Assembly: GCA_965221475.1 (NCBI GenBank)
Contig: OZ244891.1
Span: 2,590,191-2,630,190, forward strand
Reading direction: 5' to 3'
DNA: 40,000 nt
Source: Alphaproteobacteria bacterium
GTDB taxonomy: Bacteria > Pseudomonadota > Alphaproteobacteria > Bin65
A program made the position numbers and the translations under genes. Every line of letters begins with the position of its first letter. The first letter of the stretch is position 1. The notes beneath the pieces were generated by a model. That model was not told where the DNA came from, did no database searches, and worked only from the letters and a program-made list of their open reading frames with translations. Below are positions 18,274-32,403 of this stretch, piece after piece.

Positions 18274-19692
18274 TTAAGGGCCGGCGGCGCGTCTGGGAAG
18301 GCCGGCAACGGCGGCTTCGGCACATGGCCGGGCCAGCCAGCGGTCGAGATCGGCGAGCGCGCGCTGCGCCATCGCCTGCCTGCGCGCCCGCCCCTTTGGC
18401 CGGCGTCCGCCCGGCATCGCATCCTCAGCCGGCGGCGGCATCAGGCCGAAATTGACGTTCATCGGCTGGAAGCTGTCGGCCGCCGCGCCGCCGGTGATGT
18501 GCCCCAGCAGCGCGCCGAGAGCGGTGGTCTCCGGCGGCGGCGCGAAGGGGCTGCCGCGCCGTTCCGCCGCCGCCATGCGGCCGGCCAGCAGCCCGATGGC
18601 CGCGCTTTCGACATAGCCCTCGACGCCGGCGACCTGGCCGGCGAAGCGCAGGCGCGGCGCGGCCTTCAGGCGCAGCTGGCCATCCAGCAGAAGCGGGCTG
18701 TTCAGGAAGGTATTGCGGTGGATGCCGCCGAGCCGGGCGAAGCGCGCCTGCTCCAGCCCCGGAATCGTGCGGAAGATCGCGGTCTGGGCGCCGTGCTTCA
18801 GCCGGGTCTGAAAGCCGACCATGTTGAACAGGGTGCCGAGCGCATTGTCCTGGCGCAGCTGCACCACGGCATGGGCGCGCCGGCCGGTGCGCGGATCGGT
18901 CAGGCCGACCGGCTTCATCGGCCCGTAGCGCAGGGTCTCGCGGCCGCGCTCGGCCATCACCTCGATGGGCAGGCAGCCTTCGAACCAGGGCGTATCCTTC
19001 TCCCAGTCCCGCAACGCCGTCTTTTCGCCGGCGATGAGGGCATCGATGAAGCCGTTGTACTGCGCTTCGTCCAGCGGGCAGTTGATATAGGCCTGCCGGT
19101 CGCCGCCGGGGCCGGCCCGGTCGTAGCGCGACTGGCGCCAGACGATGCTTTCGTCGACCGAATCGACATGGACGATGGGGGCGATGGCGTCGAAGAAGGC
19201 CAGCGACTCCTCGCCGGTCAGGTCGATGATCGCCTGCGCCAGCGAAGGCGAGGTCAGCGGGCCGGTGGCGACGATGGTGCTGCCCCAGTCGGCCGGCGGC
19301 AGGCCGGCGATCTCGCCGCGCCGGATATCGACCAGCGGATGCGCCTCCAGCCGGCCCTGCACCGCGGCGGCGAAACCGTCCCTGTCCACCGCCAGGGCGC
19401 CGCCGGCCGGCACCTTGTTGGCATCCGCCGCCGCGAGGATCAGCGAGCCGCAGCGCCGCATCTCCTCGTGCAGCACGCCGATGGCGCTGGTCTGGGCATC
19501 GTCGGACCGGAAGGAATTGGAGCAGACCAGCTCGGCAAGCCGGTCGGTGCGATGGGCGTCCGTGCCGCGCTGCGGCCGCATTTCGTGCAGGACGGCCGGC
19601 ACACCGGCGCCGGCCGCCTGCCACGCCGCTTCGCATCCGGCTAGGCCGCCGCCGACGATATGGACGGGCGCGAGGGAGGAGGTTCCGGTCAT
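18274..19692 (-). CDS. trmFO: methylenetetrahydrofolate--tRNA-(uracil-5-)-methyltransferase TrmFO
   Basis: [20 protein letters not shown]-binding N-terminus, followed by [14 protein letters not shown] and [20 protein letters not shown]. 472 aa. Confidence 0.92.
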
Positions 19693-19767
19693 GGCCGCGG
19701 ATATGGTCTGCCGGGCGCGCCGGGAAAGGCTGCCGGACGCCGCAATGCGCGCACCGGCGCAAGGGTT

Positions 19768-19802
19768 TTGACGGCCGGGGCGCCGGCGATTAGGTTGCGC
19801 AA
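19768..19802 (+). promoter_or_regulatory. possible sigma-70-type promoter (TTGACG-17 nt-TAGGTT) with the palindrome TTGCGCAA overlapping the -10
   Basis: TTGACG is at 19768-19773, followed by a 17-nt spacer and TAGGTT at 19791-19796. The perfect 8-bp palindrome TTGCGCAA is at 19795-19802. This is about 30-60 bp upstream of the first gene of the 12-gene operon. Pattern match only. Confidence 0.25.
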
Positions 19803-19830
19803 CTCAATCCCTTTCTTCGCCGGAGAGCCC

Positions 19831-20073
19831 ATGACCAGCCCGCGCATGACCCACCCGCTGGCCGGAATCGACTATTCGCACCAGTGCCGCGACTGGGAGG
19901 AGACGCCGTATACCAGGGCGCTGGGCGATGCGCTCGAACGCCTGTTCGACCGCGAGGTCCACGATCTCGACGGCATCGTGACCGGCCTGAACGAGGCCGG
20001 CGTCGCGCCGCCCGACGGCAAGTGCTGGACCGCCGGGAACTTCAGGGCGGAAATGGCGCGCCTGGGCGCCTGA
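19831..20073 (+). CDS. small (80 aa) protein with a recombinase-domain-like helix-turn-helix segment
   Basis: GGAGAG lies 3 nt upstream of ATG 19831, which is in frame within track ORF 19660..20073. The C-terminal DLDGIVTGLNEAGVAPPDGKCWTAGNFRAEMARLG resembles the I-A-x-x-L-N-x-x-G-x-x-x-x-x-G-x-x-W segment of serine-recombinase 'recombinase' domains. No catalytic domain is present. Confidence 0.5.
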   Translation: MTSPRMTHPLAGIDYSHQCRDWEETPYTRALGDALERLFDREVHDLDGIVTGLNEAGVAPPDGKCWTAGNFRAEMARLGA

Positions 20074-20109
20074 AGCGCCCCCGACGCAATTCCGCCGCAC
20101 CGCGCTGCC

Positions 20110-20901
20110 ATGTCGAGGCTCAGTTTCAGGGAGGTGTCGCGCCATTTTCCGCCGGTACGGGGCCGGACGGAGGGCGAGGGCGTGCTGGCGGTCGATGATG
20201 TCAGCATCGATATTGCCGATGGCGAGGTCGTCGCCCTGATCGGCCCCAGCGGCTGCGGCAAGAGCACCCTGCTCAACCTCGCCTCCGGCCTCGACCGGCC
20301 CTCGAAGGGCGCCGTCTTCGTCGATGGCGAGCCGGTGAGCGGCCCGAACGAGCATGTCGCCTTCATGCTGCAGAAGGATCTGCTGCTGCCCTGGCGGACG
20401 ATCCGCCGGAATGTCGAATTCGGCCAGGAAATCCGCCGCATGAGCCCGGCGCAGCGGCAGGAGCGGGCGGGCAGATTCCTCCAGCGCTATCATCTCGACG
20501 GCTTCGCCAACCACTATCCGCACGAGCTTTCCGGCGGCATGCGCCAGCGCGCCGCGCTCGCCCGCACCATGATGATGGACCCGGATGTGCTGCTGCTCGA
20601 CGAGCCCTTCTCCGCCCTCGATGCCCAGACCAAGATGGTGCTGCAGCAGGATCTGGCCCAGACGGTGGCCGAGGAAAACAAGACCGCCTTCCTGATCACC
20701 CACGACCTGGTCGAGGCGCTCGCGCTCAGCGACCGGGTCCTGGTGATGTCGCGCCGGCCCGGCCGCATCGTCGAGGAAATCGCCGTCGATATTCCCGGCC
20801 GCGACGACCCGATGCGGCGGCGCCAGAACGAGCGGATCGGCCCGCTCACCGCCCGGCTGATGTCGCTGCTCGATATCGGCACGCCGGGGCAGACGGTCTG
20901 A
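20110..20901 (+). CDS. ABC transporter ATP-binding protein (NitT/TauT nitrate/sulfonate/taurine family-like)
   Basis: Walker A GPSGCGKST, signature LSGGMRQR and Walker B LLLDEPFSALD. 263 aa. Confidence 0.9.
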   Translation: MSRLSFREVSRHFPPVRGRTEGEGVLAVDDVSIDIADGEVVALIGPSGCGKSTLLNLASGLDRPSKGAVFVDGEPVSGPNEHVAFMLQKDLLLPWRTIRRNVEFGQEIRRMSPAQRQERAGRFLQRYHLDGFANHYPHELSGGMRQRAALARTMMMDPDVLLLDEPFSALDAQTKMVLQQDLAQTVAEENKTAFLITHDLVEALALSDRVLVMSRRPGRIVEEIAVDIPGRDDPMRRRQNERIGPLTARLMSLLDIGTPGQTV

Positions 20902-21686
20902 TGCCGGTTCTGCAGCGCCGGGAAATTTCGCTCAGCGCGCTGGCGCTGCTCGTCTTCCTGGCCGGCTGGGAATGGGGGCCGCCGCTGCTCGGCATCGCGC
21001 CCTACAATATCCCGCGCCTGTCCGCCGTGTTCGACGAGGGCGTGCATCTGTGGATCAATGGCGATCTGCTGCACCACACGCTCATCACCTGCTTCGAAGT
21101 CATTGTCGGTTTCACCCTGGGCTGCCTGATGGGCGCGGTCATGGGCTATGCGCTCGGCATGTCGCGCCTGATGGAGGTGGTGGCCTCGCCCTATATCCTG
21201 GCGCTCCAGATCGCGCCCAAGGTGGCGTTCGCGCCGCTGTTCGTCATGTGGTTCGGCTACAACATCACGCCGCGCATCCTCACCGCTATCCTGATCGTCT
21301 TCTTCCCCGTCCTCATCAACGTGCTGACGGCGGTGCGCAGCGTCGATCCTTCGATGATCGATCTGGCCCGCCTGTTCCGGGCGAGCCGGGCGCAGATTTT
21401 CTGGAAGATCGAATTTCCCTGGTCCCTGCCGGCCCTGTTCAGCGGGCTGCGCATCGGCGCGACCCTCGCGGTGATCGGCGTCACGGTCGCCGAGCTGGTC
21501 GGCGGCAGCGTCGGCCTCGGCGCCGAACTGGCCAAGGCGGAGGGCGCGGCCAACACCGCCGGGGTTTTCGTCACCATCATTCTGCTTACGGTGATCGGCA
21601 TCCTGGCGTATGTTCTGGTGATTCTGGCCGAGCGCGCGGTGCTGCGCTATGCGCCGCAGCGGCCGGACGGCAACATCGCCCAATAG
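20901..21686 (+). CDS. ABC transporter permease (NitT/TauT family-like)
   Basis: Six hydrophobic segments and an EAA-like loop (MIDLARLFRASRAQIFWKIEFPWSLPALFSGLRIG). The start overlaps the ATPase stop (TGATG). Confidence 0.88.
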   Translation: MPVLQRREISLSALALLVFLAGWEWGPPLLGIAPYNIPRLSAVFDEGVHLWINGDLLHHTLITCFEVIVGFTLGCLMGAVMGYALGMSRLMEVVASPYILALQIAPKVAFAPLFVMWFGYNITPRILTAILIVFFPVLINVLTAVRSVDPSMIDLARLFRASRAQIFWKIEFPWSLPALFSGLRIGATLAVIGVTVAELVGGSVGLGAELAKAEGAANTAGVFVTIILLTVIGILAYVLVILAERAVLRYAPQRPDGNIAQ

Positions 21687-21714
21687 CGCGGAAACGCTGC
21701 AGAAGGAGAGGAGC

Positions 21715-22254
21715 ATGCCCCCCGATTCCGGCCCCGCAGGCCCTGTCCCCGCCGCGGCGAAATCCGCCGCCGGGCCGCTCGCTGCGCGCATGCAGGGCCG
21801 CATTGCCCGCTATGCCACCCGGACCTACGACTGGGATGCGCTGAAATTCCAGGCCGATTTCGATCCCCGCTACCGGCGTGCCCAGATGCGCTATGTCGGC
21901 ACCGGCGGCACCGGCGTGGCCGGCGACGCGAACACGGTCCCGTCGGAACATTTCACCTTCTCGACCATGGTGCTGCCGCCGGGCTGCGAAGGCCCGCTGC
22001 ATGTCCATGACGATGTCGAGGAAGTGTTCTTCATGCTGCGCGGCCGGGTGCGCCTGTTCTTCGAGGATGGCGGCGAGCGCTGGGAAACCGAGCTGGGCGA
22101 GCGCGATCTGATCTCCGTACCGCCGGGCGTCTATCGCGGCCTGGTGAATGCGTGGGACGAGGAGGCGCTGATGTGCGTTATGCTGGGTGCCGCAAAGCCG
22201 CAGACGCCGACCTATCCGCCCGATCATCCGCTGGCGTCGGTCCGGCGCGGCTGA
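21715..22254 (+). CDS. cupin domain protein (possible metal-dependent dioxygenase/decarboxylase)
   Basis: Cupin motif 1, GCEGPLHVHDDVEEVFFMLRG (HxHx3E), and motif 2, VPPGVYRGLVN. AAGGAGAGGAG lies just upstream of ATG 21715, which is in frame within track ORF 21649..22254. Confidence 0.75.
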   Translation: MPPDSGPAGPVPAAAKSAAGPLAARMQGRIARYATRTYDWDALKFQADFDPRYRRAQMRYVGTGGTGVAGDANTVPSEHFTFSTMVLPPGCEGPLHVHDDVEEVFFMLRGRVRLFFEDGGERWETELGERDLISVPPGVYRGLVNAWDEEALMCVMLGAAKPQTPTYPPDHPLASVRRG

Positions 22255-22291
22255 CCGCCGGCGGCGCCGTTCGCCAGGGAGAGTGAAGATC

Positions 22292-23305
22292 ATGGCAGGC
22301 AATGCGGAGACCGCCGCTCTTCTCGAAGCCGGGCTGCCCGACCGGTGGTATGCCCTGCTGCCGGCCGCCTGGGTCGGCGACGCGCCGGTCGGCATCGTCC
22401 GGCTGGGCCGCCGGCTTGTCCTGTGGCGCGACGGGGCCGGCGCCGTCCATGTCCAGGCCGACCGCTGCCCGCACCGGGGCGCCCGGCTGAGCCAGGGCCA
22501 TGTCATCGACGGTCTGCTGACCTGCACCTATCACGGCATGCAGTTCGACGGCGAGGGTACGGTCGCCCGCGTCCCGGCCTATCCGGGCTGCAAGCTCGAA
22601 GGCATGCAGGGCGTCCGCAGCTGGCCGGCGGTGGAGAAGGCCGGCTGCATCTTCGCCTGGCTGGGCGAGGGGGCGCCGGCGCCGCTCGCCTTCCCCGAGG
22701 AATTCGACGATCCGGCCTGGTCGCATTTCCTGTGCAGCGCGACCTGGAAGGGCAGCTATCTGCACGCGCTCGACAATCTCGTCGACCCGATGCACGGCTC
22801 CTACCTCCATGCGAACAGCTACACGCTGGCCTACGGCTCGCTCGAGGATGTGATGGAGGTCGTGGGGACGGAGGACGGCTTCACCGTCCGGCGCACGCAG
22901 CAGGTCGGCCGCAATTTCGACTGGACGGAATTTCACGCCACCGGCGCGGACTGGGTGCGGCTCGATCTGCCCTATCCGCCAGGCGCCGGGCCGGGCGGCA
23001 TGTTCCGCATCCTGGGCTATGTCACGCCGGTCGATGCCGGCGCCTGCCAGGTCTTCTTCTGGCGCCTGCGCAAGATCGATGGCTGGCAGCGCGACCTCTG
23101 GCGCTTCATGTACAAGAGCCGGCTGGAGGAGCGGCACTGGCACGTTCTGGAGCAGGACCGGGTGGTGATCGAGGATATGGAACAGCCGGAAGCCGAAATG
23201 CTCTATCAGCACGATATCGGCGTCACCCATCTGCGCCGCCTGCTGCACAGGCGGGCGCGCGACCATCTGAAGAGCCGGGACGCGGCGCAGCTTGCCGCCG
23301 AATAG
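22292..23305 (+). CDS. Rieske [2Fe-2S] non-haem-iron oxygenase, alpha-subunit-only (phthalate/VanA/KshA-like) type
   Basis: Rieske ligands CPHRG...CTYHGMQF and mononuclear iron motif DNLVDPMHGSYLH. ATG 22292 is in frame within track ORF 22187..23305. Confidence 0.85.
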   Translation: MAGNAETAALLEAGLPDRWYALLPAAWVGDAPVGIVRLGRRLVLWRDGAGAVHVQADRCPHRGARLSQGHVIDGLLTCTYHGMQFDGEGTVARVPAYPGCKLEGMQGVRSWPAVEKAGCIFAWLGEGAPAPLAFPEEFDDPAWSHFLCSATWKGSYLHALDNLVDPMHGSYLHANSYTLAYGSLEDVMEVVGTEDGFTVRRTQQVGRNFDWTEFHATGADWVRLDLPYPPGAGPGGMFRILGYVTPVDAGACQVFFWRLRKIDGWQRDLWRFMYKSRLEERHWHVLEQDRVVIEDMEQPEAEMLYQHDIGVTHLRRLLHRRARDHLKSRDAAQLAAE

Positions 23306-23323
23306 CCGCATGCCGGCCGTCTG

Positions 23324-24085
23324 ATGGGTCTGCTCGAAGGCAAGATCGTTCTGGTCACCGGCGCCGGCCGCGGCCTCGGCCGGGCCTTTGCCGAGGCCGC
23401 GGCGGCGGAAGGCGCAGCGACGGTCGCAATCGCCGAACTGGTCGAGGATCTGGGGCGCGAAACCGCGGCGGCGCTCGCGGCGCAGGGCGTCGATGCGCCC
23501 TTCATGCCGGTCGATCTGGGCGATCCGGACAGCGTCGCCGCGCTGGGGCGCACCATGGCCGGCCGCTATGGGCGGCTCGACGGGCTGGTCAACAATGGCG
23601 CGATTGCCACCGGGATCGGCGGCCGGACCTTCGAGGAGATCGATGTCGCGACCTGGGACCGGGTCATGGCGGTCAATGTCCGCGGCACCTGGCTGGCGGT
23701 GAAGGCGCTCGCACCCCTGCTGCGCGCCGCCGCGGGCGGGGCGCGCATCGTCAATATCGCGTCCGACACCGCGCTGTGGGGCGCGCCGCGGCTGCTGCAC
23801 TACGTTTCGGGCAAGGGCGCGGTGATCGCGATGACGCGCTCGCTGGCGCGCGAACTGGGCCCCGACGATATCGCCGTCAACGCGGTCGCGCCCGGCCTCA
23901 CCCTGGTCGAGGCGACCGAATATGTGCCCCAGGCGCGCAAGGACCATTATGTTGCCGGCCGCGCCATGCCGCGGGCGCAGGTTCCGGCCGATGTCGTCGG
24001 CGCGGTGATGTATCTTCTGTCCGAAGGCGCTGCCTTCGTCACCGGGCAGGTGCTGCCCGTCAATGGGGGGTTCGTGTTCAATTGA
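23324..24085 (+). CDS. classical short-chain dehydrogenase/reductase
   Basis: TGAGRGLG cofactor motif, NNGA, and catalytic S...YVSGK (YxxxK). Confidence 0.88.
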   Translation: MGLLEGKIVLVTGAGRGLGRAFAEAAAAEGAATVAIAELVEDLGRETAAALAAQGVDAPFMPVDLGDPDSVAALGRTMAGRYGRLDGLVNNGAIATGIGGRTFEEIDVATWDRVMAVNVRGTWLAVKALAPLLRAAAGGARIVNIASDTALWGAPRLLHYVSGKGAVIAMTRSLARELGPDDIAVNAVAPGLTLVEATEYVPQARKDHYVAGRAMPRAQVPADVVGAVMYLLSEGAAFVTGQVLPVNGGFVFN

Positions 24086-24924
24086 CCGTGCCGGTTCCCG
24101 ATATCGAAATCGTCTCGCCGGTCGGGCCCGACGGCGGCAGCCGGCAGGTCGAAATCCGCCAGGCCGGGGCGGGGCCGGTCCTGTTCCTGCTCCACGGCAT
24201 CGGTTCGGCGTCGCGCGGCTGGGTTCATCAGTTCCCGGCCTTCGCCGATCGCTACCGGACCATCGCCTGGGCCGCGCCCGGCTATGGCCTCTCGACCGAT
24301 CTTGCCGGCGATGCGCCGGTGGCGCGCGATTATGCGCTGGTCCTGCGCGACCTGTTCGATGCGCTCGGCATCGGCCGCGCCCTGCTGTGCGGCAATTCCC
24401 TGGGCGCGCTGTTCGCCGCCGCCTTCGCCAATATCGCGCCGGACCGGGTCGCCGGCCTGTTCCTGTCCGACGCCGCCCAGGGCCATGGCCGCCTGCCCGA
24501 AGCGGAGCGGGAGGCCCGGCTGCAGGCGCGGCTCGAACCGCTGGAGCGGCTGGGCGTCGAGCGGATGGCCCAGGCGCGTGCCGGCAATCTGCTGGCGCCG
24601 GGCGCGCCGGAGGCGCTGCGCCAGGCCGTCGCCGGGATCACGGCGGAAATCCGGCCGGTCGGCTACCGGCGGGCGGCCCATGCCCTGTCGCGCGGCGATC
24701 TGATGGCCGAGATGGCCGGCTATGACGGGCCGGTCGCCGTCGTCTGCGGCACGGAGGACCGGGTGACGCCGCCGGAGAGCAACCGGGAGATCGCCGCCAG
24801 CCGGCCCCAGGCCGGCTTCACGCCGATCCCCGACGCCGGCCATCTGCCCTATATCGAGGCGCCGGAAGCGTTCAACCGCCTGCTTGCCCGCTTCGCCGAT
24901 GCAGTGACGGGAGCGGACCGGTGA
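24082..24924 (+). CDS. alpha/beta hydrolase (Ser nucleophile; meta-cleavage-product hydrolase-like)
   Basis: HGIGSAS oxyanion region, GNSLGA nucleophile elbow, and C-terminal DAGHLPYIEAPE. It corresponds to the last roughly 280 codons of track ORF 22345..24924. The start TTG 24082 (or GTG 24088) overlaps the SDR stop and is uncertain. Confidence 0.75.
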   Translation: MTVPVPDIEIVSPVGPDGGSRQVEIRQAGAGPVLFLLHGIGSASRGWVHQFPAFADRYRTIAWAAPGYGLSTDLAGDAPVARDYALVLRDLFDALGIGRALLCGNSLGALFAAAFANIAPDRVAGLFLSDAAQGHGRLPEAEREARLQARLEPLERLGVERMAQARAGNLLAPGAPEALRQAVAGITAEIRPVGYRRAAHALSRGDLMAEMAGYDGPVAVVCGTEDRVTPPESNREIAASRPQAGFTPIPDAGHLPYIEAPEAFNRLLARFADAVTGADR

Positions 24925-25715
24925 ATCTCGGCCTTGCCGGCCGGCGCGCGCTGGTGACCGGAGGCTCTTCGGGCATCGGGCTGGCCGCCGTGCGCCTGCT
25001 GCTCGAGGACGGGGGGCAGGTCGCCCTGTGCGGCCGCAGCGAAGACCGGCTGGCGCACGCGGCGGCGCCGCTGCAGGAACGGTTCGGCGGCGATGCCGTC
25101 CTGCCGGTGGTCTGCGACGTGCGCGAGGCGGCGGCCGTCGCCGCGATGCAGGACCGGGTGCTCGACCGCTTCGGCGGGCTGGATATTCTGGTCGCCAATG
25201 CCGGGCAGGGCCGGATCGGCACCTTCGCCGATACCGGCGACGAGGCATGGCGCGACGAGTTCGAGCTGAAATTCTTTTCCGTCATCCGGCCGACCCGCGC
25301 CTTCCTGCCGGCGCTGCGCGCCAGTACGGCGGGCAGCATCGTCGTGGTCAATTCCCTGCTCGCGCGTCAGCCGGAGCCGCACATGGTGTGCACCGCCGCC
25401 CTGCGGGCCGGCGTGCAGAATCTGGTCAAGTCCATGAGTATCGAGTTCGCGCCCGACCGTGTGCGCGTCAACGCCATCCTGCTCGGCCTGGTCGATTCCG
25501 GCCAGTGGCAGCGGCGCTACGAGGCGCGGGACGACCGGCAGCAGAGCCGGGAGGACTGGATGGCGGCGCTGGCGGCGGAGAAGAAGATTCCGCTCGGCCG
25601 GCTGGGCGCGCCGGAGGAGGCCGCCTCGGCCGTGGTCTGGCTGGCCTCGCCCTCCGCCTCCTTCGTCACCGGCGCGTCGCTCGAAGTGTCCGGCGGGGTT
25701 TCGCGCTTTGCCTGA
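24921..25715 (+). CDS. SDR-fold oxidoreductase lacking the canonical YxxxK
   Basis: VTGGSSGIGLA cofactor motif and NAG. Thirteen residues after the catalytic-Ser position (VVNS) the sequence reads T-A-A-L-R instead of Y-x-x-x-K. The GTG start overlaps the upstream stop (GTGA). Confidence 0.8.
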   Translation: MNLGLAGRRALVTGGSSGIGLAAVRLLLEDGGQVALCGRSEDRLAHAAAPLQERFGGDAVLPVVCDVREAAAVAAMQDRVLDRFGGLDILVANAGQGRIGTFADTGDEAWRDEFELKFFSVIRPTRAFLPALRASTAGSIVVVNSLLARQPEPHMVCTAALRAGVQNLVKSMSIEFAPDRVRVNAILLGLVDSGQWQRRYEARDDRQQSREDWMAALAAEKKIPLGRLGAPEEAASAVVWLASPSASFVTGASLEVSGGVSRFA

Positions 25716-27375
25716 GGGGCGGGCGACGGTCGGCGATCTGGTCGCCGCCTTTCTCGATGCCTGCGGCGTGTCGACGTCGTTCGGCGTTATCTCGATCCAC
25801 AATATGCCGATCCTCGATGCGTTCGCCCGCGCCGGGCGGATGCGCTTCGTGCCGGCGCGCGGCGAGGCCGGCGCGCTCGCCATGGCAGACGCCTTCGCCC
25901 GGGTGACGGGCGGGCTTGGCGTCGGCGTCACCTCAACCGGGGTCGCGGCCGGCAACGCCGTCGGCAGCCTGGTGGAGGCGCGCACCGCCGGATCGCCGGT
26001 CCTGCATCTCACCGGCCAGATCGAGCGCGCCTGGCTCGACCGGGGCTGGGGCTATATTCACGAAGCGCCCGACCAGCCGACCATGCTGAAGGGCGTCTCG
26101 AAGGCATATTTCCGCATCGGCGCGCCGGAGGAGGCGCTGGCGGTGCTGACCCGGGCCGTCCGGGCGGCGCTGACGCCGCCGGCCGGGCCGGTCAGCGTCG
26201 AGATTCCCATCGACGTTCAGGCGGCGCCGGCCGCCATGCCCGATGCACTCGCCCCGCCCCGCATCCGGCGCATACCGCCGTCGAACGCCGATCTCGATGC
26301 CCTCGCCGATGCGCTGGCGGCCGCCCGCCGGCCGATCCTGTGGCTGGGCGGTGGCGCGCGCGGCGCGGATTCGGCGGCGCTGCGCCTCGCCGATATGGGC
26401 GTCGGCATCGTGACCAGCACGAACGGCCGCGGCGTCGTCCCGGAGAACCACCCGATGACCCTCGGCGCCTTCAATGCCGCGCCGCCGGTCGAGGAATTCT
26501 ACGGAACCTGCGACCTGATGGTCGTGGCCGGCTCGCGCCTGCGCGGCAACGAAACGCTGAAATGGCGCCTCGGCCTGCCGGCACAGCGCCTGCGCATCGA
26601 TTGCGACCCGGCGATGGACGGCCGCGGCTATGACTGCGCCCGCTTCGTCCGGGGCGATGCGGTGGCGGCGCTGGGTGGGCTGGCCGACCGGCTGACCGGC
26701 CGGCTGCGCACCGATCCGGCCTTCGCGGACGACCTCGCCGCCGCGCGCGCCGCCGCAGAGGCCGGCCTGCGCGCCAGCCTCGGCGAACGCTGGACCGAAA
26801 TCATGGAGACGGTGGCGGCGCGCCTGCCGGCCGGGTCGCCCTGGGTCCGCGATATCACCCTGTCGAACAGCATCTGGGGCAACCGGGCGGTGCCGCTGAC
26901 CGGCTCGCGCCAGGGCGTCCATTCCCTCGGCGGCGCCATCGGCCAGGGGCTGCCGATGGGAATCGGCGCCGCGCTGGCCGCGCCCGGCCGCCGCACGGTC
27001 GCGCTCGCCGGCGATGGCGGCTTCGCCCTCAGCCTCGGCGAGCTGGCGACGGCGGCGCAGGAGCGGGCGCCGCTCACCGTGCTGCTCATGAACGACAGGG
27101 GCTATGGCGTCATCCGCAACATTCAGGATGCGCACTATGGCGGCCGGCGGCATTATGCCGATCTGCTGACGCCGGATTTCGCTGCGCTGTGCGCCAGCAT
27201 GAGGGTGTGGCACCGCCAGGTCTGGAACGTTGCAAGTTTCCGCGAGGTGCTGGCGGCGGCGCTCGTCGGCGAGGGCCCGGCCGTGCTGGAGGTCGATATG
27301 AACGCCATCGGCCCGTTTGCCCGCCCCTTCGCCGGCCCGCCGGTGCGCGAGCCGAAGGCCGGCGGGCCGTCATGA
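25708..27375 (+). CDS. thiamine-diphosphate-dependent enzyme (acetolactate synthase / benzoylformate decarboxylase superfamily)
   Basis: N-terminal PYR domain (GEAGALAMADAFARVTGGLGVGVTSTGVAAGNAVGSL) and TPP motif GDGGF...LLMNDRGYG. It is in frame within track ORF 25459..27375. TTG 25708 is the first plausible start, so the start is uncertain. Confidence 0.8.
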   Translation: MPEGRATVGDLVAAFLDACGVSTSFGVISIHNMPILDAFARAGRMRFVPARGEAGALAMADAFARVTGGLGVGVTSTGVAAGNAVGSLVEARTAGSPVLHLTGQIERAWLDRGWGYIHEAPDQPTMLKGVSKAYFRIGAPEEALAVLTRAVRAALTPPAGPVSVEIPIDVQAAPAAMPDALAPPRIRRIPPSNADLDALADALAAARRPILWLGGGARGADSAALRLADMGVGIVTSTNGRGVVPENHPMTLGAFNAAPPVEEFYGTCDLMVVAGSRLRGNETLKWRLGLPAQRLRIDCDPAMDGRGYDCARFVRGDAVAALGGLADRLTGRLRTDPAFADDLAAARAAAEAGLRASLGERWTEIMETVAARLPAGSPWVRDITLSNSIWGNRAVPLTGSRQGVHSLGGAIGQGLPMGIGAALAAPGRRTVALAGDGGFALSLGELATAAQERAPLTVLLMNDRGYGVIRNIQDAHYGGRRHYADLLTPDFAALCASMRVWHRQVWNVASFREVLAAALVGEGPAVLEVDMNAIGPFARPFAGPPVREPKAGGPS

Positions 27376-28196
27376 GCGCCGGCCGGCACGGTTCGGCCGG
27401 CACGACCGTCGCCTTGGTCGGTTATGGGGCGATCGGGCGTTATACGGTCGGGGCGCTGGCCGGGGACGAGCGCTGCCGGATCGGCGCCGTCATCGTCCGG
27501 CCGGGCCGGGTGGCGGCGACGCAGGCGGCGCTCGGCCCGGCGGTCCGGGTCTGCGACAATATCGAATCGCTGCCGGAGCCGCCGGATCTGATCGTCGAGG
27601 CGGCCGGCCACGGCGCGCTGGTCGAGCACGGCATTCCGGCCCTGCGCGCTGGCCATCGCCTGCTCGTCGTCTCGGTTGGCGCGCTGGCCGACCCGGCGCT
27701 GCGCACCGCGCTGGAGGAGGCGGCGCAGACCGGCGGCGGCATCGCCGAAATCGTGCCCGGCGCGGTCGGCGGGATCGATGCGCTGGCGGCGGCCCGGCAG
27801 GGCGGGCTGACCGGCGTCTCCTACACGTCGCGCAAGCCGCCGGCGGCCTGGAAGGGGACGCCGGGCGAGGACCTGTGCGATCTCGACCGGCTCGACACGC
27901 CCTTCACCCTCTATGAAGGCCCGGCCGATCGGGCTGCCCTGGCCTGGCCGAAGAACGCCAATGTGGCGGCGACGGTGGCGCTGGCCGGCGTCGGCTTCGA
28001 CCGGACTTCGGTGCGCATCGTCGCCGACCCGGCCGCACCCGGCAACGTTCACGAAATCGAGGCCGTCGGCGCGTTTGGCCGGATGGCGCTGCGCCTGGAG
28101 GGCCGGCCGCTGCCGGACAATCCCAAAACCTCGAGCCTGACGGCCTTTTCGGTCCTCCGTGCGATCCGCAACCGGGCGGCGGCGATCCGGATATGA
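27372..28196 (+). CDS. aspartate dehydrogenase-fold (NadX/DUF108 family) NAD(P) oxidoreductase
   Basis: Rossmann N-terminus VALVGYGAIGR and the C-terminal domain pattern ...YEGPADRAALAWPKNANVAATVALAG...NVHEIEAVGAFG...DNPKTSSLTA. ATG 27372 overlaps the TPP-enzyme stop (ATGA). Confidence 0.75.
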   Translation: MSAGRHGSAGTTVALVGYGAIGRYTVGALAGDERCRIGAVIVRPGRVAATQAALGPAVRVCDNIESLPEPPDLIVEAAGHGALVEHGIPALRAGHRLLVVSVGALADPALRTALEEAAQTGGGIAEIVPGAVGGIDALAAARQGGLTGVSYTSRKPPAAWKGTPGEDLCDLDRLDTPFTLYEGPADRAALAWPKNANVAATVALAGVGFDRTSVRIVADPAAPGNVHEIEAVGAFGRMALRLEGRPLPDNPKTSSLTAFSVLRAIRNRAAAIRI

Positions 28197-28915
28197 AGGG
28201 CACCGCCGACTTCCCGCTGCTGACCCGCGAGACGATCCGCAGCGGGGCGCTGCAGGCCTATGTCCGGGCGAGCGGCGCCGCGGTGCCGATGCTCTCGGAC
28301 GACGAGCTGAGGGAATCGTGGACGCGCATCCTGGCCGGCCATCCCGATCCCGGCGGCGATGTCTGGATTTTCGGCTACGGTTCGCTGATCTGGAATCCGG
28401 CCTTCCACCATGTCGAGCGGCGCATCGCCCGGCTGCATGGCTATCATCGCCGCTTCTGCCTGTGGAGCCATCTGGGCCGCGGCAGCGCCGAGCGGCCCGG
28501 CCTGATGCTGGGGCTGGAGCGCGGCGGTTCCTGCTTCGGCATGGCCTTCCGCATCGCCGCCGCGGCGGTGGCCGACGAGCTCGAGATCGTCTGGCGGCGC
28601 GAAATGTTCGGCGGCGCCTACCGGCCGCGCTGGGTCCGCCTGCACACCGGCGCCGGGCCGGTCGCTGCCGTGACCTTCCCCATCGAGCCGGAGCACCCGC
28701 GCTATGCCGGCCGGCAGCCGGAAGCCGCGGTGGTCGCGGCGCTCGCCCATGCCGAAGGGCCGCTCGGCACGGCGCGCTCCTATCTCGACAATACGGTCGA
28801 TCATCTCGAAGCCCATGGCATCCGCGACCGGTCGCTCTCCCGTCTGCGCCGGCTGGTGGCCGAGGCGGCAGCGGGCGCGGCGGGTGGACGGCAAAACCCA
28901 GGAGAAGCAGCATGA
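28193..28915 (+). CDS. ChaC-type gamma-glutamylcyclotransferase family protein
   Basis: WIFGYGSLIWNP (YGSL motif) followed by the ChaC-like core LMLGLERGGSCFGMAF...REM. ATGA overlaps at both ends. Confidence 0.8.
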   Translation: MKGTADFPLLTRETIRSGALQAYVRASGAAVPMLSDDELRESWTRILAGHPDPGGDVWIFGYGSLIWNPAFHHVERRIARLHGYHRRFCLWSHLGRGSAERPGLMLGLERGGSCFGMAFRIAAAAVADELEIVWRREMFGGAYRPRWVRLHTGAGPVAAVTFPIEPEHPRYAGRQPEAAVVAALAHAEGPLGTARSYLDNTVDHLEAHGIRDRSLSRLRRLVAEAAAGAAGGRQNPGEAA

Positions 28916-30363
28916 CGGAACTCGCCTTCGCGTCCGCGACGGAACTCGCCGCCGCGGTGCGCCGCCGGGAGATCGGCGCGGAAGAGCTGCTGGACCTCTA
29001 TCTCGCCCGGATCGACGCCCACAATCCGGCGCTCAACGCCGTGATCTGGCAGGACCGCGAGCGGGCGCGCGAGACCGCGCGCGCCGCCGACAGCCGGACC
29101 GTGCAGGGCGGCGACCTGCCGCCGCTCCACGGTGTGCCGATGACGATCAAGGAGAGCTACGACGTCGCCGGCGCGCCGACGACCTGGGGCGATCCGGCGT
29201 TCCGGGACAATATCGCCGCCGCGGACTGCGTTGCGGTCCAGCGGCTGAAAGCGGCCGGCGTCACCCTGTTCGGCAAGACCAACGTGCCGCTGATGCTCGC
29301 CGACTGGCAGAGCTTCAACGACATCTATGGCACCACCTGCAACCCCTGGGACAGCAGCCGCACGCCCGGCGGCTCCTCCGGCGGGTCGGCGGCGGCGCTG
29401 GCCGCCGGGCTCACCGGCCTTGAGGCCGGCAGCGATATCGGCTCCTCGATCCGCAATCCGGCGCATTATTGCGGCCTGTTCGGCCACAAGCCGAGCTATG
29501 GCATCTGCCCGCCGCGCGGCCAGGCCCTGCCCGGCGTCCTGACCAATTCGGACATTTCCGTGGTCGGTCCGCTGGCGCGCTCGGCCAGCGATCTGGAGAT
29601 CGCGCTCGACATCATGGCGGGGCCGGACGAGATGGACGCGGCCGGCTGGCGGCTCGACCTGCCGGCGCCGCGCACCGACGGTTTCGAGGGGCTTCGGGTG
29701 GCGGCGATGCTGGACAGCGCGCCTTCCGAGGTCGATACGGTCTATCGCGATCTGCTGCAGGACCTGGTGGACGGCATCGCCGCGGCCGGCGCGACGGTGA
29801 GCGAGACCGCCCGGCCGGAGATCGACATGAACGCGCTGCACGAGACCTATATCCTGCTGCTGCGCGCGGCCACCAGCGTCAACGTGCCGGAAGCCCGGCT
29901 GGCGGAGTATCGCCGCGTCGTCCAGCAGCTCGACCCGGCGGACGACAGCTATTACGCCCGCATGGTGCGCGGCCACACCATATCCCATCGCGAATGGCTG
30001 GGGCTGCACGAGAAGCGCGAGCATTTCCGCTGGGCCTGGCACCGCTTCTTCCGCGACTGGGACGTTCTGCTCTGCCCGGTCGCCGCCTCGACCGCCTTTC
30101 CGCACGACCCCGGCGGCGAACGGCACGAGCGCACGATTCCGGTCAACGGGCGCCCGGTGCCGACCACCGACCAGCTGTTCTGGGCCGGCCTGAACGGCGT
30201 GGTCTATCTGCCGGGCAGCGTGGCGCCGGCCGGCATCGCCCGCGACGGCCTGCCCGGCGGCATCCAGATCGTCGGCCCCTGGCTCGGCGACCGGACCTGC
30301 ATCCGGGTCGCCCGGCTCATCGAGCGGCGGTTCGGCGGCTTCCAGCCGCCGCCGGGATATTGA
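28912..30363 (+). CDS. amidase signature (AS) family amidase
   Basis: GVPMTIKESYDV (catalytic Lys region) and the GGSSGGSAAALAAG signature. ATG 28912 is in frame within track ORF 28159..30363 and has GGAGAAG upstream. Confidence 0.88.
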   Translation: MTELAFASATELAAAVRRREIGAEELLDLYLARIDAHNPALNAVIWQDRERARETARAADSRTVQGGDLPPLHGVPMTIKESYDVAGAPTTWGDPAFRDNIAAADCVAVQRLKAAGVTLFGKTNVPLMLADWQSFNDIYGTTCNPWDSSRTPGGSSGGSAAALAAGLTGLEAGSDIGSSIRNPAHYCGLFGHKPSYGICPPRGQALPGVLTNSDISVVGPLARSASDLEIALDIMAGPDEMDAAGWRLDLPAPRTDGFEGLRVAAMLDSAPSEVDTVYRDLLQDLVDGIAAAGATVSETARPEIDMNALHETYILLLRAATSVNVPEARLAEYRRVVQQLDPADDSYYARMVRGHTISHREWLGLHEKREHFRWAWHRFFRDWDVLLCPVAASTAFPHDPGGERHERTIPVNGRPVPTTDQLFWAGLNGVVYLPGSVAPAGIARDGLPGGIQIVGPWLGDRTCIRVARLIERRFGGFQPPPGY

Positions 30364-30373
30364 GCGGCGGCCG

Positions 30374-30778
30374 CTACTGGCTCAGGCTCGCCAGATAGTC
30401 GATGACGTCGGTGCGGAATTTCTCTTTCTTGAAGCGGTTGGCCATCTTGTTGCTGACCCGCTTCTTGCCGAGATATTTCTGCAGGAATTTCTTCGGGTGC
30501 TTGAGATAGTCCATCAGGGCTTCCCGGTTCCAGACCAGGCCCTTGGCCGCGGCCTCCTTCAGGCTCCTGGAATATTTGAACTTCGGGACTGCGCCGGCGC
30601 TGCGGCCATAGATTTTGTACAGCGAGGGGCCGAGCCCGTTCTTGTTCTCCACGAGGGAGTGGCAGGCCGCGCAGCGCTTGAAATTCTTTTTCCCCCTGGC
30701 GAGGTCGGCCGCGGCCGGCGCGGAGGCGGCGCCCAGCGCGATCGCCACGGCAAGGGCGAGTTTCCAAACGGTCTTCAT
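30374..30778 (-). CDS. class I c-type cytochrome (c2/c550-like), periplasmic
   Basis: Signal peptide MKTVWKLALAVAIALGAASAPAAA, haem motif CAACH, distal Met region (NKMANRF), and a Lys-rich C-terminal helix DVIDYLASL. ATG 30778 has GGAGAC 8 nt upstream. It lies 42 bp downstream of nosX on the same strand. Confidence 0.88.
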   Translation of the reverse strand: MKTVWKLALAVAIALGAASAPAAADLARGKKNFKRCAACHSLVENKNGLGPSLYKIYGRSAGAVPKFKYSRSLKEAAAKGLVWNREALMDYLKHPKKFLQKYLGKKRVSNKMANRFKKEKFRTDVIDYLASLSQ

Positions 30779-30820
30779 GGCGAACGTCTCCAAAAGAGGC
30801 GGTTTTCCAGGATGGAAATA

Positions 30821-31858
30821 TCAGCTTGCCGCGGTCAGCCGCAACAGGTGTCCGCCGGCATCGATGGCGCAGGCCGAGGTGCCGGGAAAGCGGGCGAGCG
30901 CCTGCCTGATGCCGGCCGGCGGCAGAAGGAACCCGGCCGTGGACAGGCCGTCCGCGACGGCAGCGGACGGCGCGACCACGCTGAGGCTGGCGTATCGCCG
31001 CACCGGCCGGCCGGTGCGCGGATCGAGAATATGGCCGAAGCGGCCGGCACCGTCGAAATGCGTGCCGCCCTCGCCCGAAGTCGCGACGGCGGCGTCGCTG
31101 AGGCTAAGCGTCGTGGCGATTTCGCCCGGCATGCCGGGCCTGGCGATGCCGACCCGCCACGGCCGGCCGGCCGGATGGCCGCCGACGGCGCCGATTTCGC
31201 CGAGATCGACCAGCGCATGGGCCAGCCCGCGCCGGCGCATGAGGCGGGCCACCCGGTCGCCGATATAGCCCTGGGCGATGCCGTTCAGGGTGAGCGCCAT
31301 GCCCGGCCGGCCGAAGGAAATGCGCCCGCCGCTGCGCCGCACATGGCGCCAGCCGACCCGTGCCAGCGCGCGGTCGATGGCCGGTTGCGGCGGCCCGGTA
31401 CGGTCTTCGGGCCGGCGGGCGAAATGGGCGGCGTAGAGCTGCCACAGGGGCTGGACGGTCGGGTCGAAGGCGCCGCCGCCGGCCCGGTGGATGCGCTGCA
31501 CCAGGGCGAGCAGGGCGCGCAATTCCGCCGGCGGCGCGTCCAGCGCGCCGGTCCGGTTGAGGCGCGACAGGGCCGAATCCGGCCGGTAGAGGCTGAAAAT
31601 CCCCTCCAGCCGCGCGATCTCGCGGCGGCATTCGGCGATCAGCCGCCCGGCCGCCGGCGCGGCAAGGCCGGCGATTGCCAGGCTGGCCCGTGCGCCCAGC
31701 ACGATCCCGGACCAGCGGTGCAGCGGCGCGCCGGCCGCCGCGGCCCGGCCGGCCGGCAGCGCGGCAGCAAGCGCCGTGCTGCCGGCGATGGCGATGAAGC
31801 GCCGGCGTCCCGGCCGCCCCGGCCCGGCTGCGCCGCCGCGCGGATCGGCATCGTTCAT
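30821..31858 (-). CDS. nosX: ApbE-family FAD:protein FMN transferase NosX
   Basis: Twin-arginine signal GRRRFIAIAGS and ApbE-like core (LNGIAQGYIGDRVA...). It holds the last position of the nos cluster, and its start overlaps the nosL stop (ATGA). Confidence 0.88.
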   Translation of the reverse strand: MNDADPRGGAAGPGRPGRRRFIAIAGSTALAAALPAGRAAAAGAPLHRWSGIVLGARASLAIAGLAAPAAGRLIAECRREIARLEGIFSLYRPDSALSRLNRTGALDAPPAELRALLALVQRIHRAGGGAFDPTVQPLWQLYAAHFARRPEDRTGPPQPAIDRALARVGWRHVRRSGGRISFGRPGMALTLNGIAQGYIGDRVARLMRRRGLAHALVDLGEIGAVGGHPAGRPWRVGIARPGMPGEIATTLSLSDAAVATSGEGGTHFDGAGRFGHILDPRTGRPVRRYASLSVVAPSAAVADGLSTAGFLLPPAGIRQALARFPGTSACAIDAGGHLLRLTAAS

Positions 31859-32403
31859 CGTTCGCCGTCCTTCCCGCCGCTCTTTTGCCCGCCCGTATCC
31901 GCTTCGGAGCCGCCGAGAATGTAGTCGCGCGGGATGGCGGAGAAGGCCACTGTCCGGCCGCCATGCCGCCGGGCGAAGGCACGGGCTGCACCCTCGCCGG
32001 CGAACGGGACGGCCTCCGGCGCGCCCATGCCGCCGCGCCTCGTGCTGCCGATGACGTAGAAGGCGCTGCGGGCCGGAATCCAGGTGTCCGGCCCCGGCCG
32101 GTCCCAGGGCGTCGCCGTCATGTCGTTGACGAAGATGGCGGCGATCCGCTTCGGCTCCTCCGGCAGCATGGTGAACGCGATGGTATCGCGCACGCTGCTG
32201 AAGAAAACCGGCGGCTGCCCTGCAAGGTGAATCTGGCCCTTGGGGCCGGGGTGATCGAGCACGATCATCCGGCAGTAATGGCCGCGGTGCTCGCGGTTGA
32301 GGGCGACCGGCGCGACGCTCGCGGCCGGCGTGCCGTCGTCGCAGCCGGCCAGGGCGAGCGCCAGCAGCGCCGCGGCCGCGCCGTGCCGGAACCGGCCGCT
32401 CAT
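31855..32403 (-). CDS. nosL: copper chaperone lipoprotein NosL
   Basis: Lipobox LALAGC, followed by HRGHYCRMIVLDHPGPKGQI and VNDM motifs. It corresponds to the last 183 codons of track ORF 31855..33264. ATG 32403 overlaps the nosY stop. Confidence 0.88.
   Translation of the reverse strand: MSGRFRHGAAAALLALALAGCDDGTPAASVAPVALNREHRGHYCRMIVLDHPGPKGQIHLAGQPPVFFSSVRDTIAFTMLPEEPKRIAAIFVNDMTATPWDRPGPDTWIPARSAFYVIGSTRRGGMGAPEAVPFAGEGAARAFARRHGGRTVAFSAIPRDYILGGSEADTGGQKSGGKDGER

Follow-up and report, generated by a model that had tools for sequence, protein, structure and literature searches.

What pathway is encoded by a cluster of twelve genes whose products, taken together, recall no characterised route? 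The question is raised by positions 19831-30363 of the window, by which we mean the whole 40,000-nucleotide stretch analysed here (contig C1, 2590191-2630190, of an alphaproteobacterial single-contig genome of 3.11 Mb with ~70% G+C and an estimated completeness of 96.7%). The region is filled by twelve open reading frames (ORFs), all intact and all on the plus strand, among them genes for an ATP-binding cassette (ABC) importer and a Rieske oxygenase. A first-pass annotation could match this mixture of enzymes to no known pathway, and our literature searches likewise returned no functional assignment for the cluster, its gene numbers or its combination of enzymes. The answer proposed here has two parts. 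Genes 1-10 almost certainly belong to the same family as the PA3498-PA3514-type cluster of Pseudomonas aeruginosa PAO1, and the best overall explanation, towards which the evidence leans, is that they are a trimmed and re-ordered copy of that catabolic cluster which would import and degrade a nitrogen-containing cyclic, most likely heteroaromatic, carboxylic acid.

The coherence of genes 1-10 is apparent among close relatives. A search anchored on the Rieske oxygenase, covering 41 related genomes, found orthologs in 24 of 24 genomes of the family plus one further family, and the twelve proteins were run by tblastn against 20 fetched loci; records of related genomes include ‘Rhodospirillaceae bacterium’ entries from sponge and other metagenomes. 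Within the genus, the order HTH_62 protein, ATPase, permease, cupin, Rieske oxygenase, short-chain dehydrogenase/reductase (SDR1), alpha/beta hydrolase, atypical SDR (SDR2), thiamine diphosphate (ThDP)-dependent enzyme and L-aspartate dehydrogenase (AspDH) recurs in 9 of 9 complete loci. Three of the four cluster-spanning loci from sister genera have this ten-gene order together with genes for IclR and an aldehyde dehydrogenase, one of them also with a binding protein; IclR lies between the hydrolase and SDR2, and the aldehyde dehydrogenase (64-69% identical to the canonical one) follows AspDH. In the second family, the ten-gene order is accompanied by IclR, aldehyde dehydrogenase, binding protein and a VOC protein. 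Since the sister genera keep them, the genus of the window has lost IclR, the aldehyde dehydrogenase and the binding protein from its cluster. Hence genes 1-10 are conserved together in an arrangement that is not due to chance, and the division into importer, oxidative module and tail proposed in the first-pass annotation gives way to one conserved unit of ten genes that spans three proteobacterial classes.

The wider family was outlined by an alignment-based scan anchored on the ThDP enzyme, with one genome per species and the best 80 of at least 557 stretches retained. These loci come from Alpha-, Beta- and Gammaproteobacteria (Rhodospirillales, Burkholderiales, Pseudomonas and others), including Herbaspirillum, Cupriavidus, Ralstonia, Variovorax, Hydrogenophaga, Pigmentiphaga, Pseudomonas, Reyranella, Defluviicoccus and many metagenome-assembled genomes (MAGs). 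Among the 58 loci with full 10-kb flanks, the Rieske gene is found in 53, hydrolase and cupin in 52 each, SDR2 and IclR in 51 each, AspDH in 50, SDR1 in 47, aldehyde dehydrogenase in 45, VOC in 44, a reductase in 30 and RidA in 24; SDR1, cupin, hydrolase and NitT/TauT ABC genes have orthologs that are 55-93% identical and syntenic in 100 loci. The canonical form, whose extra genes were annotated on one Pseudomonas locus before all proteins were mapped back onto the loci, comprises two units. One holds ATPase, NMT1 binding protein, permease, SDR1, cupin, hydrolase, IclR, SDR2, ThDP enzyme, AspDH, aldehyde dehydrogenase and VOC dioxygenase, and the other a 105-aa protein, HTH_62, the Rieske oxygenase, RidA and a reductase of the phthalate-dioxygenase-reductase (PDR) type. 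The RidA of the P. jinjuensis cluster matches Protein Data Bank (PDB) entry 2IG8, ‘hypothetical protein PA3499’, with an E-value of 2e-82, which ties the family to the PA3498-PA3514 region of PAO1; the PA numbers of the other members are those that we take them to carry. The arrangement that marks the family, an NF005470 ThDP gene adjacent to and overlapping with an NF005468 SDR gene and an AspDH gene, is present in the window, which is filed as a trimmed variant rather than a full member because the accessory genes are absent from it.

Transporter-less minimal clusters were also seen: three loci (L047, L061 and L075) keep HTH_62, Rieske, cupin, hydrolase, SDR2, ThDP enzyme and AspDH, and L099 is likewise minimal, with AspDH 3.1 kb further on. 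Seven loci from Hydrogenophaga and other Comamonadaceae (L080, L082, L086, L092, L093, L095 and L101) keep transporter, SDR1, hydrolase, IclR, ThDP enzyme, AspDH and aldehyde dehydrogenase, as well as the cupin in all but L093; within 10 kb they have no Rieske gene, SDR2 ortholog or VOC, and the 105-aa protein, RidA and a distant SDR follow. In P. aeruginosa, an intergenic PA3504-PA3505 mutation has been reported, its effect being unknown.

On what substrate would these enzymes act? Because the canonical form has IclR, an extradiol dioxygenase, RidA and AspDH in addition to the Rieske oxygenase, cupin and hydrolase, a nitrogen-containing ring acid, be it N-heterocyclic or N-aromatic, is a reasonably likely one. 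It would be taken up by the NitT/TauT-type ABC system, for which the cluster provides an ATPase (gene 2, 20110-20901; PF00005), whose best NCBIfam likenesses are the SaoA, taurine and nitrate ATPases, all under cut-off, and a permease (gene 3, 20901-21686; PF00528; SsuC/TauC-like). In other lineages the gene for an NMT1-type binding protein lies between these two, and here uptake would proceed via an orphan NMT1-type protein encoded 539 kb away.

The ring would then be hydroxylated by the VanA-like Rieske non-haem iron oxygenase alpha subunit (gene 5, 22292-23305, 337 aa; PF00355 + PF19112) with the 80-aa HTH_62 protein, using electrons from a non-clustered source. The Rieske ligands C59, H61, C78 and H81 and the D165/H168/H173 iron-site motif are invariant in 37 sequences, a later Asp presumably being the remaining ligand. 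The nearest solved structures in a PDB sequence search are DdmC and SxtT/SxtDIOX (E 1e-20 to 1e-21), and the names given to homologs at source are generic only. SDR1 (gene 6, 23324-24085; adh_short), a classical SDR dehydrogenase with conserved catalytic S147, Y160 and K164, would dehydrogenate the hydroxylated product.

Ring opening would fall to the single-domain metal cupin (gene 4, 21715-22254, 179 aa; Cupin_2). Residues H96, H98, E102 and E103 show no variation in an alignment of 30 orthologs and reach at least 95% conservation in a set of 87, and the protein is without the second-motif His. A fold model (mean predicted local distance difference test score, pLDDT, 72.6) recovered only generic cupins with Foldseek, e.g. 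oxalate oxidase and Ni-quercetinase, and a protein atlas returned only ‘cupin domain protein’ clusters. A metagenomic protein of 529 aa (P0061), 54% identical to the Rieske protein of the window, is a natural fusion of Cupin_2 with Rieske/VanA_C, and hints that cupin and oxygenase may act together. The PcaD-like alpha/beta-fold hydrolase (gene 7, 24082-24924; Abhydrolase_1), with a conserved S106/D226/H254 triad and with 3-oxoadipate enol-lactonase as its best NCBIfam likeness, under cut-off, would cleave a C-C or C-N bond.

In the last steps, SDR2 would reduce and the ThDP enzyme decarboxylate a 2-oxoacid side chain, and AspDH would take a four-carbon nitrogen-bearing fragment (iminoaspartate or aspartate) to oxaloacetate and ammonia. 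SDR2 (gene 8, 24921-25715) is an equivalog match to NF005468 (PRK07062; 394 bits, cut-off 266) and was rightly called atypical at first pass, as the YxxxK pair is missing, with Thr158 and Arg162 at the positions of the catalytic Tyr and Lys, R162 being conserved. The 2-oxoacid-decarboxylase-like ThDP enzyme (gene 9, 25708-27375) is likewise an equivalog match, to NF005470 (PRK07064; 795 bits, cut-off 495); its next-best family is the unnamed PRK08266, its nearest named family is 5-guanidino-2-oxopentanoate decarboxylase, and its top PDB match is BbmA (E 2e-46). Gene 10 (27372-28196) had been described only as an aspartate-dehydrogenase-fold protein; the label is too weak, as the protein is placed at family level above the curated AspDH cut-offs (NF009827 and NF009828, ~300 bits against 177-226; 301 bits against 226 for NF009827). 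At least 95% of 80 orthologs have H227, other residues of the family are conserved too, and activity has been reported for PA3505. Only distant or generic relatives turned up in the PDB when the Rieske protein, ThDP enzyme, cupin, binding protein, AspDH and HTH_62 served as queries.

The least familiar member of the set is gene 1 (19831-20073), an 80-aa mini-protein of the HTH_62 family (PF20552, Pfam E 7e-23) and the only HTH_62 gene of the genome. In some 100 loci, HTH_62 was never seen without a Rieske gene, and it stands directly upstream of that gene in 44 of 83 cases, a lower bound given the insensitivity of tblastn with an 80-aa query; in the window, three genes separate the two. The protein has a net charge of -5 here and of -1 to -9 across 37 homologs, all of them acidic, which would be odd for a DNA binder. 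A complex of HTH_62 with the Rieske protein was predicted with a score of 0.83 as against 0.01 for the best of three controls, a level reached by 58 of 80 solved complexes and by 2 of 110 mismatched pairs, these counts being only rough as our own alignments were used. The runs agreed in at least 92% of contacts, with a partner pLDDT of at least 84. The predicted interface comprises the invariant residues Q18, R20, L31, L46 and L78 of HTH_62 and the W265-W283 helix of the Rieske protein, and touches the loops beside the Rieske ligands (residues 67-70 and 79-80). A PDB sequence search returned no solved HTH_62 structure and the literature no paper on the family, so the prediction does not merely reproduce a complex known by sequence.

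Gene 1 thus shows neither the basic surface nor the occurrence independent of any one enzyme by which a regulator would be recognised. The modelling and the gene neighbourhoods suggest that HTH_62 probably serves the Rieske oxygenase as a small subunit or structural partner rather than binding DNA as a regulator, and if gene 1 is read in this way, the operon would have no regulator at all in this genus. One 228-aa record, among eight search matches, carries HTH_62 and Rieske together, too thin an observation to count and perhaps a gene-calling artefact. HTH_62 accompanies all three supported clades of a Rieske tree of 79 sequences. Clade I contains the window protein and is almost confined to its family; in clade II, RidA or a reductase follows, and its members come from Pseudomonas, Herbaspirillum and others, together with the second copy of the congeners; the genes of clade III lie within the main cluster, in Cupriavidus, Ralstonia and various Alphaproteobacteria. 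The Rieske gene of one relative (L021) was considered as a pseudogene, an idea that was rejected, as the apparent stop codon lies upstream of the true start.

A standard regulator, an oxygenase reductase and a binding protein had been noted as missing at first pass; all three are indeed absent from the window, and tblastn searches with accessory proteins against the whole genome asked whether they are encoded elsewhere. Among IclR, aldehyde dehydrogenase, VOC, RidA, the PDR-type reductase and the binding protein, only the last has a clear ortholog, the others being absent or distant. This solitary NMT1-type binding protein (C1:2050314-2051204, minus strand; locus L119, 6306-7406) is 48-54% identical to cluster-encoded ones and is likely to be the missing receptor of the operon's ABC importer. 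An AEC-family transporter gene adjoins it, and MarR-family and phosphotransferase genes are near. As for electron supply, a glutathione-reductase-type ferredoxin reductase (Pyr_redox_2 + Reductase_C) is encoded by a single stand-alone gene at C1:1032814-1034121, and the cluster reductases of the PDR type have no tblastn match in the genome. At least five Rieske oxygenase alpha subunits are encoded in this genome despite the absence of PF00175.

Several observations weigh against this explanation as a whole. The substrate class rests on enzyme families and on the canonical IclR, extradiol and RidA genes, all three of which are absent here, and SDR2 has no catalytic SDR Tyr, which leaves its chemistry open. 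No aldehyde dehydrogenase ortholog is encoded in the genome, the best homologs being 38-41% identical as against 64-71% for true orthologs; nothing closer to RidA than E 4e-5 was found genome-wide; the only VOC homolog, 43% identical, sits in a different, aniline-dioxygenase-like cluster; and the PF00175 (FNR-type) domain is absent from the whole genome. Moreover, the Rieske protein of the window falls in a clade of its own and is 45-50% identical to those of canonical clusters, the score of the HTH_62 complex is the model's own confidence and not a measurement, and the genes for tryptophan 2,3-dioxygenase (kynA) and kynureninase (kynU) lie within 10 kb of none of 100 loci. The absence of the accessory genes implies that the route may differ from the canonical one or be shorter.

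Might the substrate be known after all? One alternative is that the operon is the classical kynurenic acid ‘quinoline’ pathway and that this copy acts on kynurenate. The route, said to have been described in pseudomonads by the Hayaishi laboratory in 1961-63 and covered by KEGG and by papers of Hayaishi and Dagley, reportedly proceeds by 7,8-hydroxylation, diol dehydrogenation, extradiol cleavage, and side-chain reduction, decarboxylation and oxidation, ending with the conversion of dihydroxypicolinate to 2-oxoglutarate and an aspartate-type fragment; to our knowledge, its enzymes are known and its genes are not, and no paper tying genes to it was found in the literature on kynurenate degradation. 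On paper the canonical gene set would fit well: Rieske oxygenase and reductase would make up the hydroxylase, diol dehydrogenation would fall to SDR1 and 8,8a-dioxygenation to VOC, SDR2 would serve as an ene-reductase, ThDP enzyme and aldehyde dehydrogenase would carry out the steps from oxopropyl via formylethyl to carboxyethyl, and the pyridine ring and the release of nitrogen would be left to cupin, hydrolase, AspDH and RidA. The genome has tryptophan 2,3-dioxygenase and kynureninase and therefore makes kynurenine. A 2024 review, citing Horibata et al. (1961), states that pseudomonads turn kynurenate into glutamate, alanine and organic acids, and this fate of the nitrogen would give AspDH a role.

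Against kynurenate stands the fact that the best-fitting pieces, the extradiol VOC dioxygenase and the aldehyde dehydrogenase, are the ones that are absent from this cluster and have no close ortholog in the genome, the window offering candidates for the hydroxylase, dehydrogenase and decarboxylase steps and none for these two. Family-wide, VOC is absent from the cluster, save for one weak VOC-like stretch (28% identical) in a sister genus. Furthermore, the nearest solved relatives of the Rieske protein are a demethylase and saxitoxin hydroxylases rather than quinoline oxygenases, and the mapping itself is a putative one, built on old biochemistry. With VOC and aldehyde dehydrogenase missing and no kynurenine gene near any locus, the fit is weaker here than for the canonical form, and kynurenate is an unlikely substrate of this copy. 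More doubtful still is a version drawn for the whole family, in which the cluster would be a pathway for kynurenic acid or a close quinoline or picolinate, starting with a hitherto unrecognised two-component Rieske oxygenase that has HTH_62 (Pfam ‘recombinase-like HTH’) as a small subunit, and present here as a derived form without VOC, aldehyde dehydrogenase or FNR-type reductase, ending via a ChaC-like enzyme and an amidase. If the kynurenate reading were true, a very old gap in tryptophan metabolism would be closed.

The remaining two genes of the cluster are the basis of a second alternative, which is also the substrate suggested by the first-pass annotation: a ChaC-like enzyme and an amidase would remove an N-acyl or gamma-glutamyl group from an aromatic or heterocyclic compound, and the oxidative module would degrade the ring. 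The ChaC-like gamma-glutamylcyclotransferase (gene 11, 28193-28915; PF04752, E 3e-37) and the amidase-signature amidase (gene 12, 28912-30363; NF004816/PRK06170, 615 bits, cut-off 503) are joined to the operon by ATGA overlaps. Moreover, ChaC keeps its YGSL motif (here YGSLIW), aligns with glutathione-specific cyclotransferases and is under purifying selection, with a ratio of nonsynonymous to synonymous substitution rates (dN/dS) of 0.34-0.39; its E137 falls, to within one position, on the catalytic residue that was mutated in 6KY1, the register of the alignment being uncertain. The distribution of the two genes speaks against such a role. ChaC is next to the cluster in 2 of the 58 fully flanked ThDP-anchored loci, both from same-genus MAGs; in the genus it follows AspDH in all complete loci but one (G001), behind a spacer of ~90-1200 nt as compared with the 4-nt overlap here, and it is 70-77% identical to the same-genus copies, the core genes being mostly 79-93% identical. 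The amidase is beside the cluster only in this genome, in none of the 58 loci and in no same-genus locus; its homologs in the genus share 54-56% identity with it and are encoded at unrelated sites, the best relative (63%) belongs to another family and sits beside parAB and gidA, and its neighbourhoods in two other genomes are uninformative.

On this distribution, ChaC joined the cluster in this genus only and the amidase in this genome only, and both are late additions. In the history that we would propose, the cluster of the genus lost the binding protein, IclR and aldehyde dehydrogenase and gained ChaC, and this genome then added the amidase and fused both genes to the operon by 4-nt overlaps. 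Having come in late, they cannot tell what the conserved pathway acts on; its other ten genes are maintained without them in three classes, and the idea of an N-acylated or gamma-glutamylated aromatic compound, which leaned on them, is not supported. The operon also has no glutamine synthetase (GS)-like ligase and no amidotransferase-like hydrolase, such a set being found elsewhere in the genome, near 107 kb. A conjugated substrate is therefore improbable; as a guess, the two enzymes might cleave a further amide or gamma-glutamyl bond towards the end of the route, or else be passengers with an unrelated function.

Two other places in the genome carry related genes. At C1:~104300-112100 (L120, 3304-11111), a two-domain VOC dioxygenase, a glutamine-synthetase-like protein and a Rieske alpha subunit of the Ring_hydroxyl_A type are encoded side by side, with a TENA/PqqC-like protein and a pyridine-nucleotide disulfide oxidoreductase nearby, in an arrangement that recalls gamma-glutamylanilide-type arylamine dioxygenase clusters. 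At C1:~700200-706100 (L121), an alpha/beta hydrolase 34% identical to gene 7 and a ChaC paralog 40% identical to gene 11 occur together with an ABC ATPase, two permeases and a BD-FAE-type esterase.

A third alternative separates the oxygenase genes from the rest. In an Ehrlich-type scheme, AspDH, the ThDP enzyme and, elsewhere, the aldehyde dehydrogenase would shorten an analogue of aspartate, for instance a sulfonated or other acidic amino acid, brought in by the sulfonate-type ABC system, and the oxygenase genes would form a module apart. The genes for these three enzymes are adjacent in most loci, the nearest named family of the ThDP enzyme is a 2-oxoacid decarboxylase, and the transporter resembles taurine and sulfonate importers. 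In addition, Acinetobacter baumannii A1S_0956-0958 (AspDH, aldehyde dehydrogenase and ‘acetolactate synthase’) appear together in a mucin transcriptome, where they are induced about two-fold. Yet cupin, hydrolase, SDR1 and Rieske gene co-occur with the ThDP gene in 47-53 of 58 loci, compared with 50 of 58 for AspDH, and the transporter-less minimal clusters described above still keep the oxygenase set with the ThDP enzyme and AspDH. The aldehyde dehydrogenase that the scheme needs is missing here, and we give it little credence. Finally, the operon might be a decaying remnant, left without a complete pathway once its regulator, binding protein, aldehyde dehydrogenase and second oxygenase module had gone, as the genome, at 3.1 Mb, is ~1 Mb smaller than those of its congeners (3.7-5.4 Mb) and has neither the second module of 105-aa protein, HTH_62, Rieske and RidA, which is found in 9 of 12 same-genus relatives, nor an FNR-type reductase, but twelve intact ORFs with conserved catalytic residues, dN/dS values of 0.1-0.39, junctions that are tightened rather than eroded, and the presence elsewhere of the orphan binding protein and of a ferredoxin reductase of the glutathione-reductase type make such decay very unlikely.

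The twelve genes form a single, tightly coupled operon. The domain named at first pass for each of the twelve ORFs was recovered with Pfam and NCBIfam, and every junction then listed was found again: TGATG at 20899-20903 (ATPase/permease), TTGA at 24082-24085 (SDR1/hydrolase), GTGA at 24921-24924 (hydrolase/SDR2), a TTG start of the ThDP enzyme at 25708, 8 nt ahead of the SDR2 stop, and ATGA at 27372, 28193 and 28912. In gene order, the intergenic distances are 36, -1, 28, 37, 18, -4, -4, -8, -4, -4 and -4 nt. Ribosome-binding sites and N-termini conserved in relatives place the cupin start at ATG 21715 instead of the first ATG at 21649, and the Rieske start at ATG 22292 instead of GTG 22187. 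A 137-aa ORF (19660-20073) was rejected as gene 1, as its upstream part overlaps a divergent trmFO-like gene and the conserved N-terminus begins at ATG 19831. All eleven comparable genes are under purifying selection relative to same-genus copies (dN/dS 0.1-0.39).

Upstream of gene 1, a promoter-like site read from the sequence (TTGACG-17 nt-TAGGTT, 19768-19796, plus strand) is absent from the list of a stricter consensus scan, and its TTGAC...TAGGxT pattern is kept in nine same-genus upstream regions. No terminator stands out inside the operon, where 6 terminator-like sites were found and 4.1 are expected. The synteny with the upstream trmFO-like gene is kept in the genus, and the downstream neighbourhood is not common to same-genus relatives. 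On that side, only 10 nt separate the stop codon of the amidase from that of a convergent cytochrome c gene, which belongs to a nos (nitrous oxide reductase) accessory cluster on the minus strand (30374-33264; cytochrome c, ApbE/NosX and NosL).

What this window adds to the family is a trimmed variant, two lineage-specific add-ons, the absence of an FNR-type reductase from an entire genome, and in silico support, on this copy, for HTH_62 as a Rieske partner. The core is often met in Proteobacteria from soil, plants, marine symbioses and clinical sources, so that knowledge of its substrate would provide annotations for ten to seventeen genes across hundreds of species. The trimmed form helps to define a minimal core of HTH_62, Rieske oxygenase, cupin, hydrolase, SDR2, ThDP enzyme and AspDH, in which the VOC dioxygenase, aldehyde dehydrogenase, RidA and reductase would be dispensable or replaceable. 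If true, the HTH_62 result corrects the description of the Pfam family and adds a new kind of Rieske small subunit.

How does the operon compare with known systems? The gamma-glutamylanilide route of aniline degradation (GS-like ligase, amidotransferase-like hydrolase and two-subunit Rieske dioxygenase) is a precedent for gamma-glutamyl conjugates in the catabolism of aromatic amines, but the operon contains no gene that defines it, the GS-like gene being located beside a Rieske alpha subunit and VOC at ~107-112 kb, and ChaC is a cyclotransferase, not the hydrolase of that route. The logic by which an amino or imino acid is turned into a 2-oxoacid and then an aldehyde is comparable to that of AruI, the 5-guanidino-2-oxopentanoate decarboxylase of the arginine transaminase pathway, which is followed by an aldehyde dehydrogenase and represents the nearest named family of the ThDP enzyme (275 bits, under the cut-off of 500). 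The ThDP enzyme of the window, however, belongs to another equivalog (NF005470), stands with AspDH instead of a transaminase, and has no aldehyde dehydrogenase beside it. The classical kynurenate pathway matches the canonical cluster on paper in the number and types of steps, a likeness that would be one of working principle.

The oxygenase itself resembles the class IA Rieske monooxygenases VanAB, TsaMB and DdmABC in its alpha subunit of Rieske plus VanA_C domains and, like them, has no beta subunit of the naphthalene-dioxygenase type, DdmC being the nearest solved structure. Those enzymes use a reductase of the FNR/ferredoxin type and are not known to have a small partner, whereas here the genome encodes no PF00175 reductase and an 80-aa HTH_62 protein is predicted to sit at the alpha subunit, by the loops of the Rieske cluster. 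The closest relative remains the PA3498-PA3514-type cluster of PAO1, seen also in P. jinjuensis, Herbaspirillum, Cupriavidus, Ralstonia, Variovorax, Pigmentiphaga and others, which has orthologs of 10 of the 12 genes. Seven components, the NMT1 binding protein, IclR, aldehyde dehydrogenase, two-domain VOC protein, 105-aa protein, RidA and PDR-type reductase, belong to the canonical cluster and are all lacking from the window. In contrast to the two units of the canonical form, the window has one re-ordered unit, which starts with HTH_62, carries a Rieske oxygenase of another clade and has gained ChaC and the amidase.

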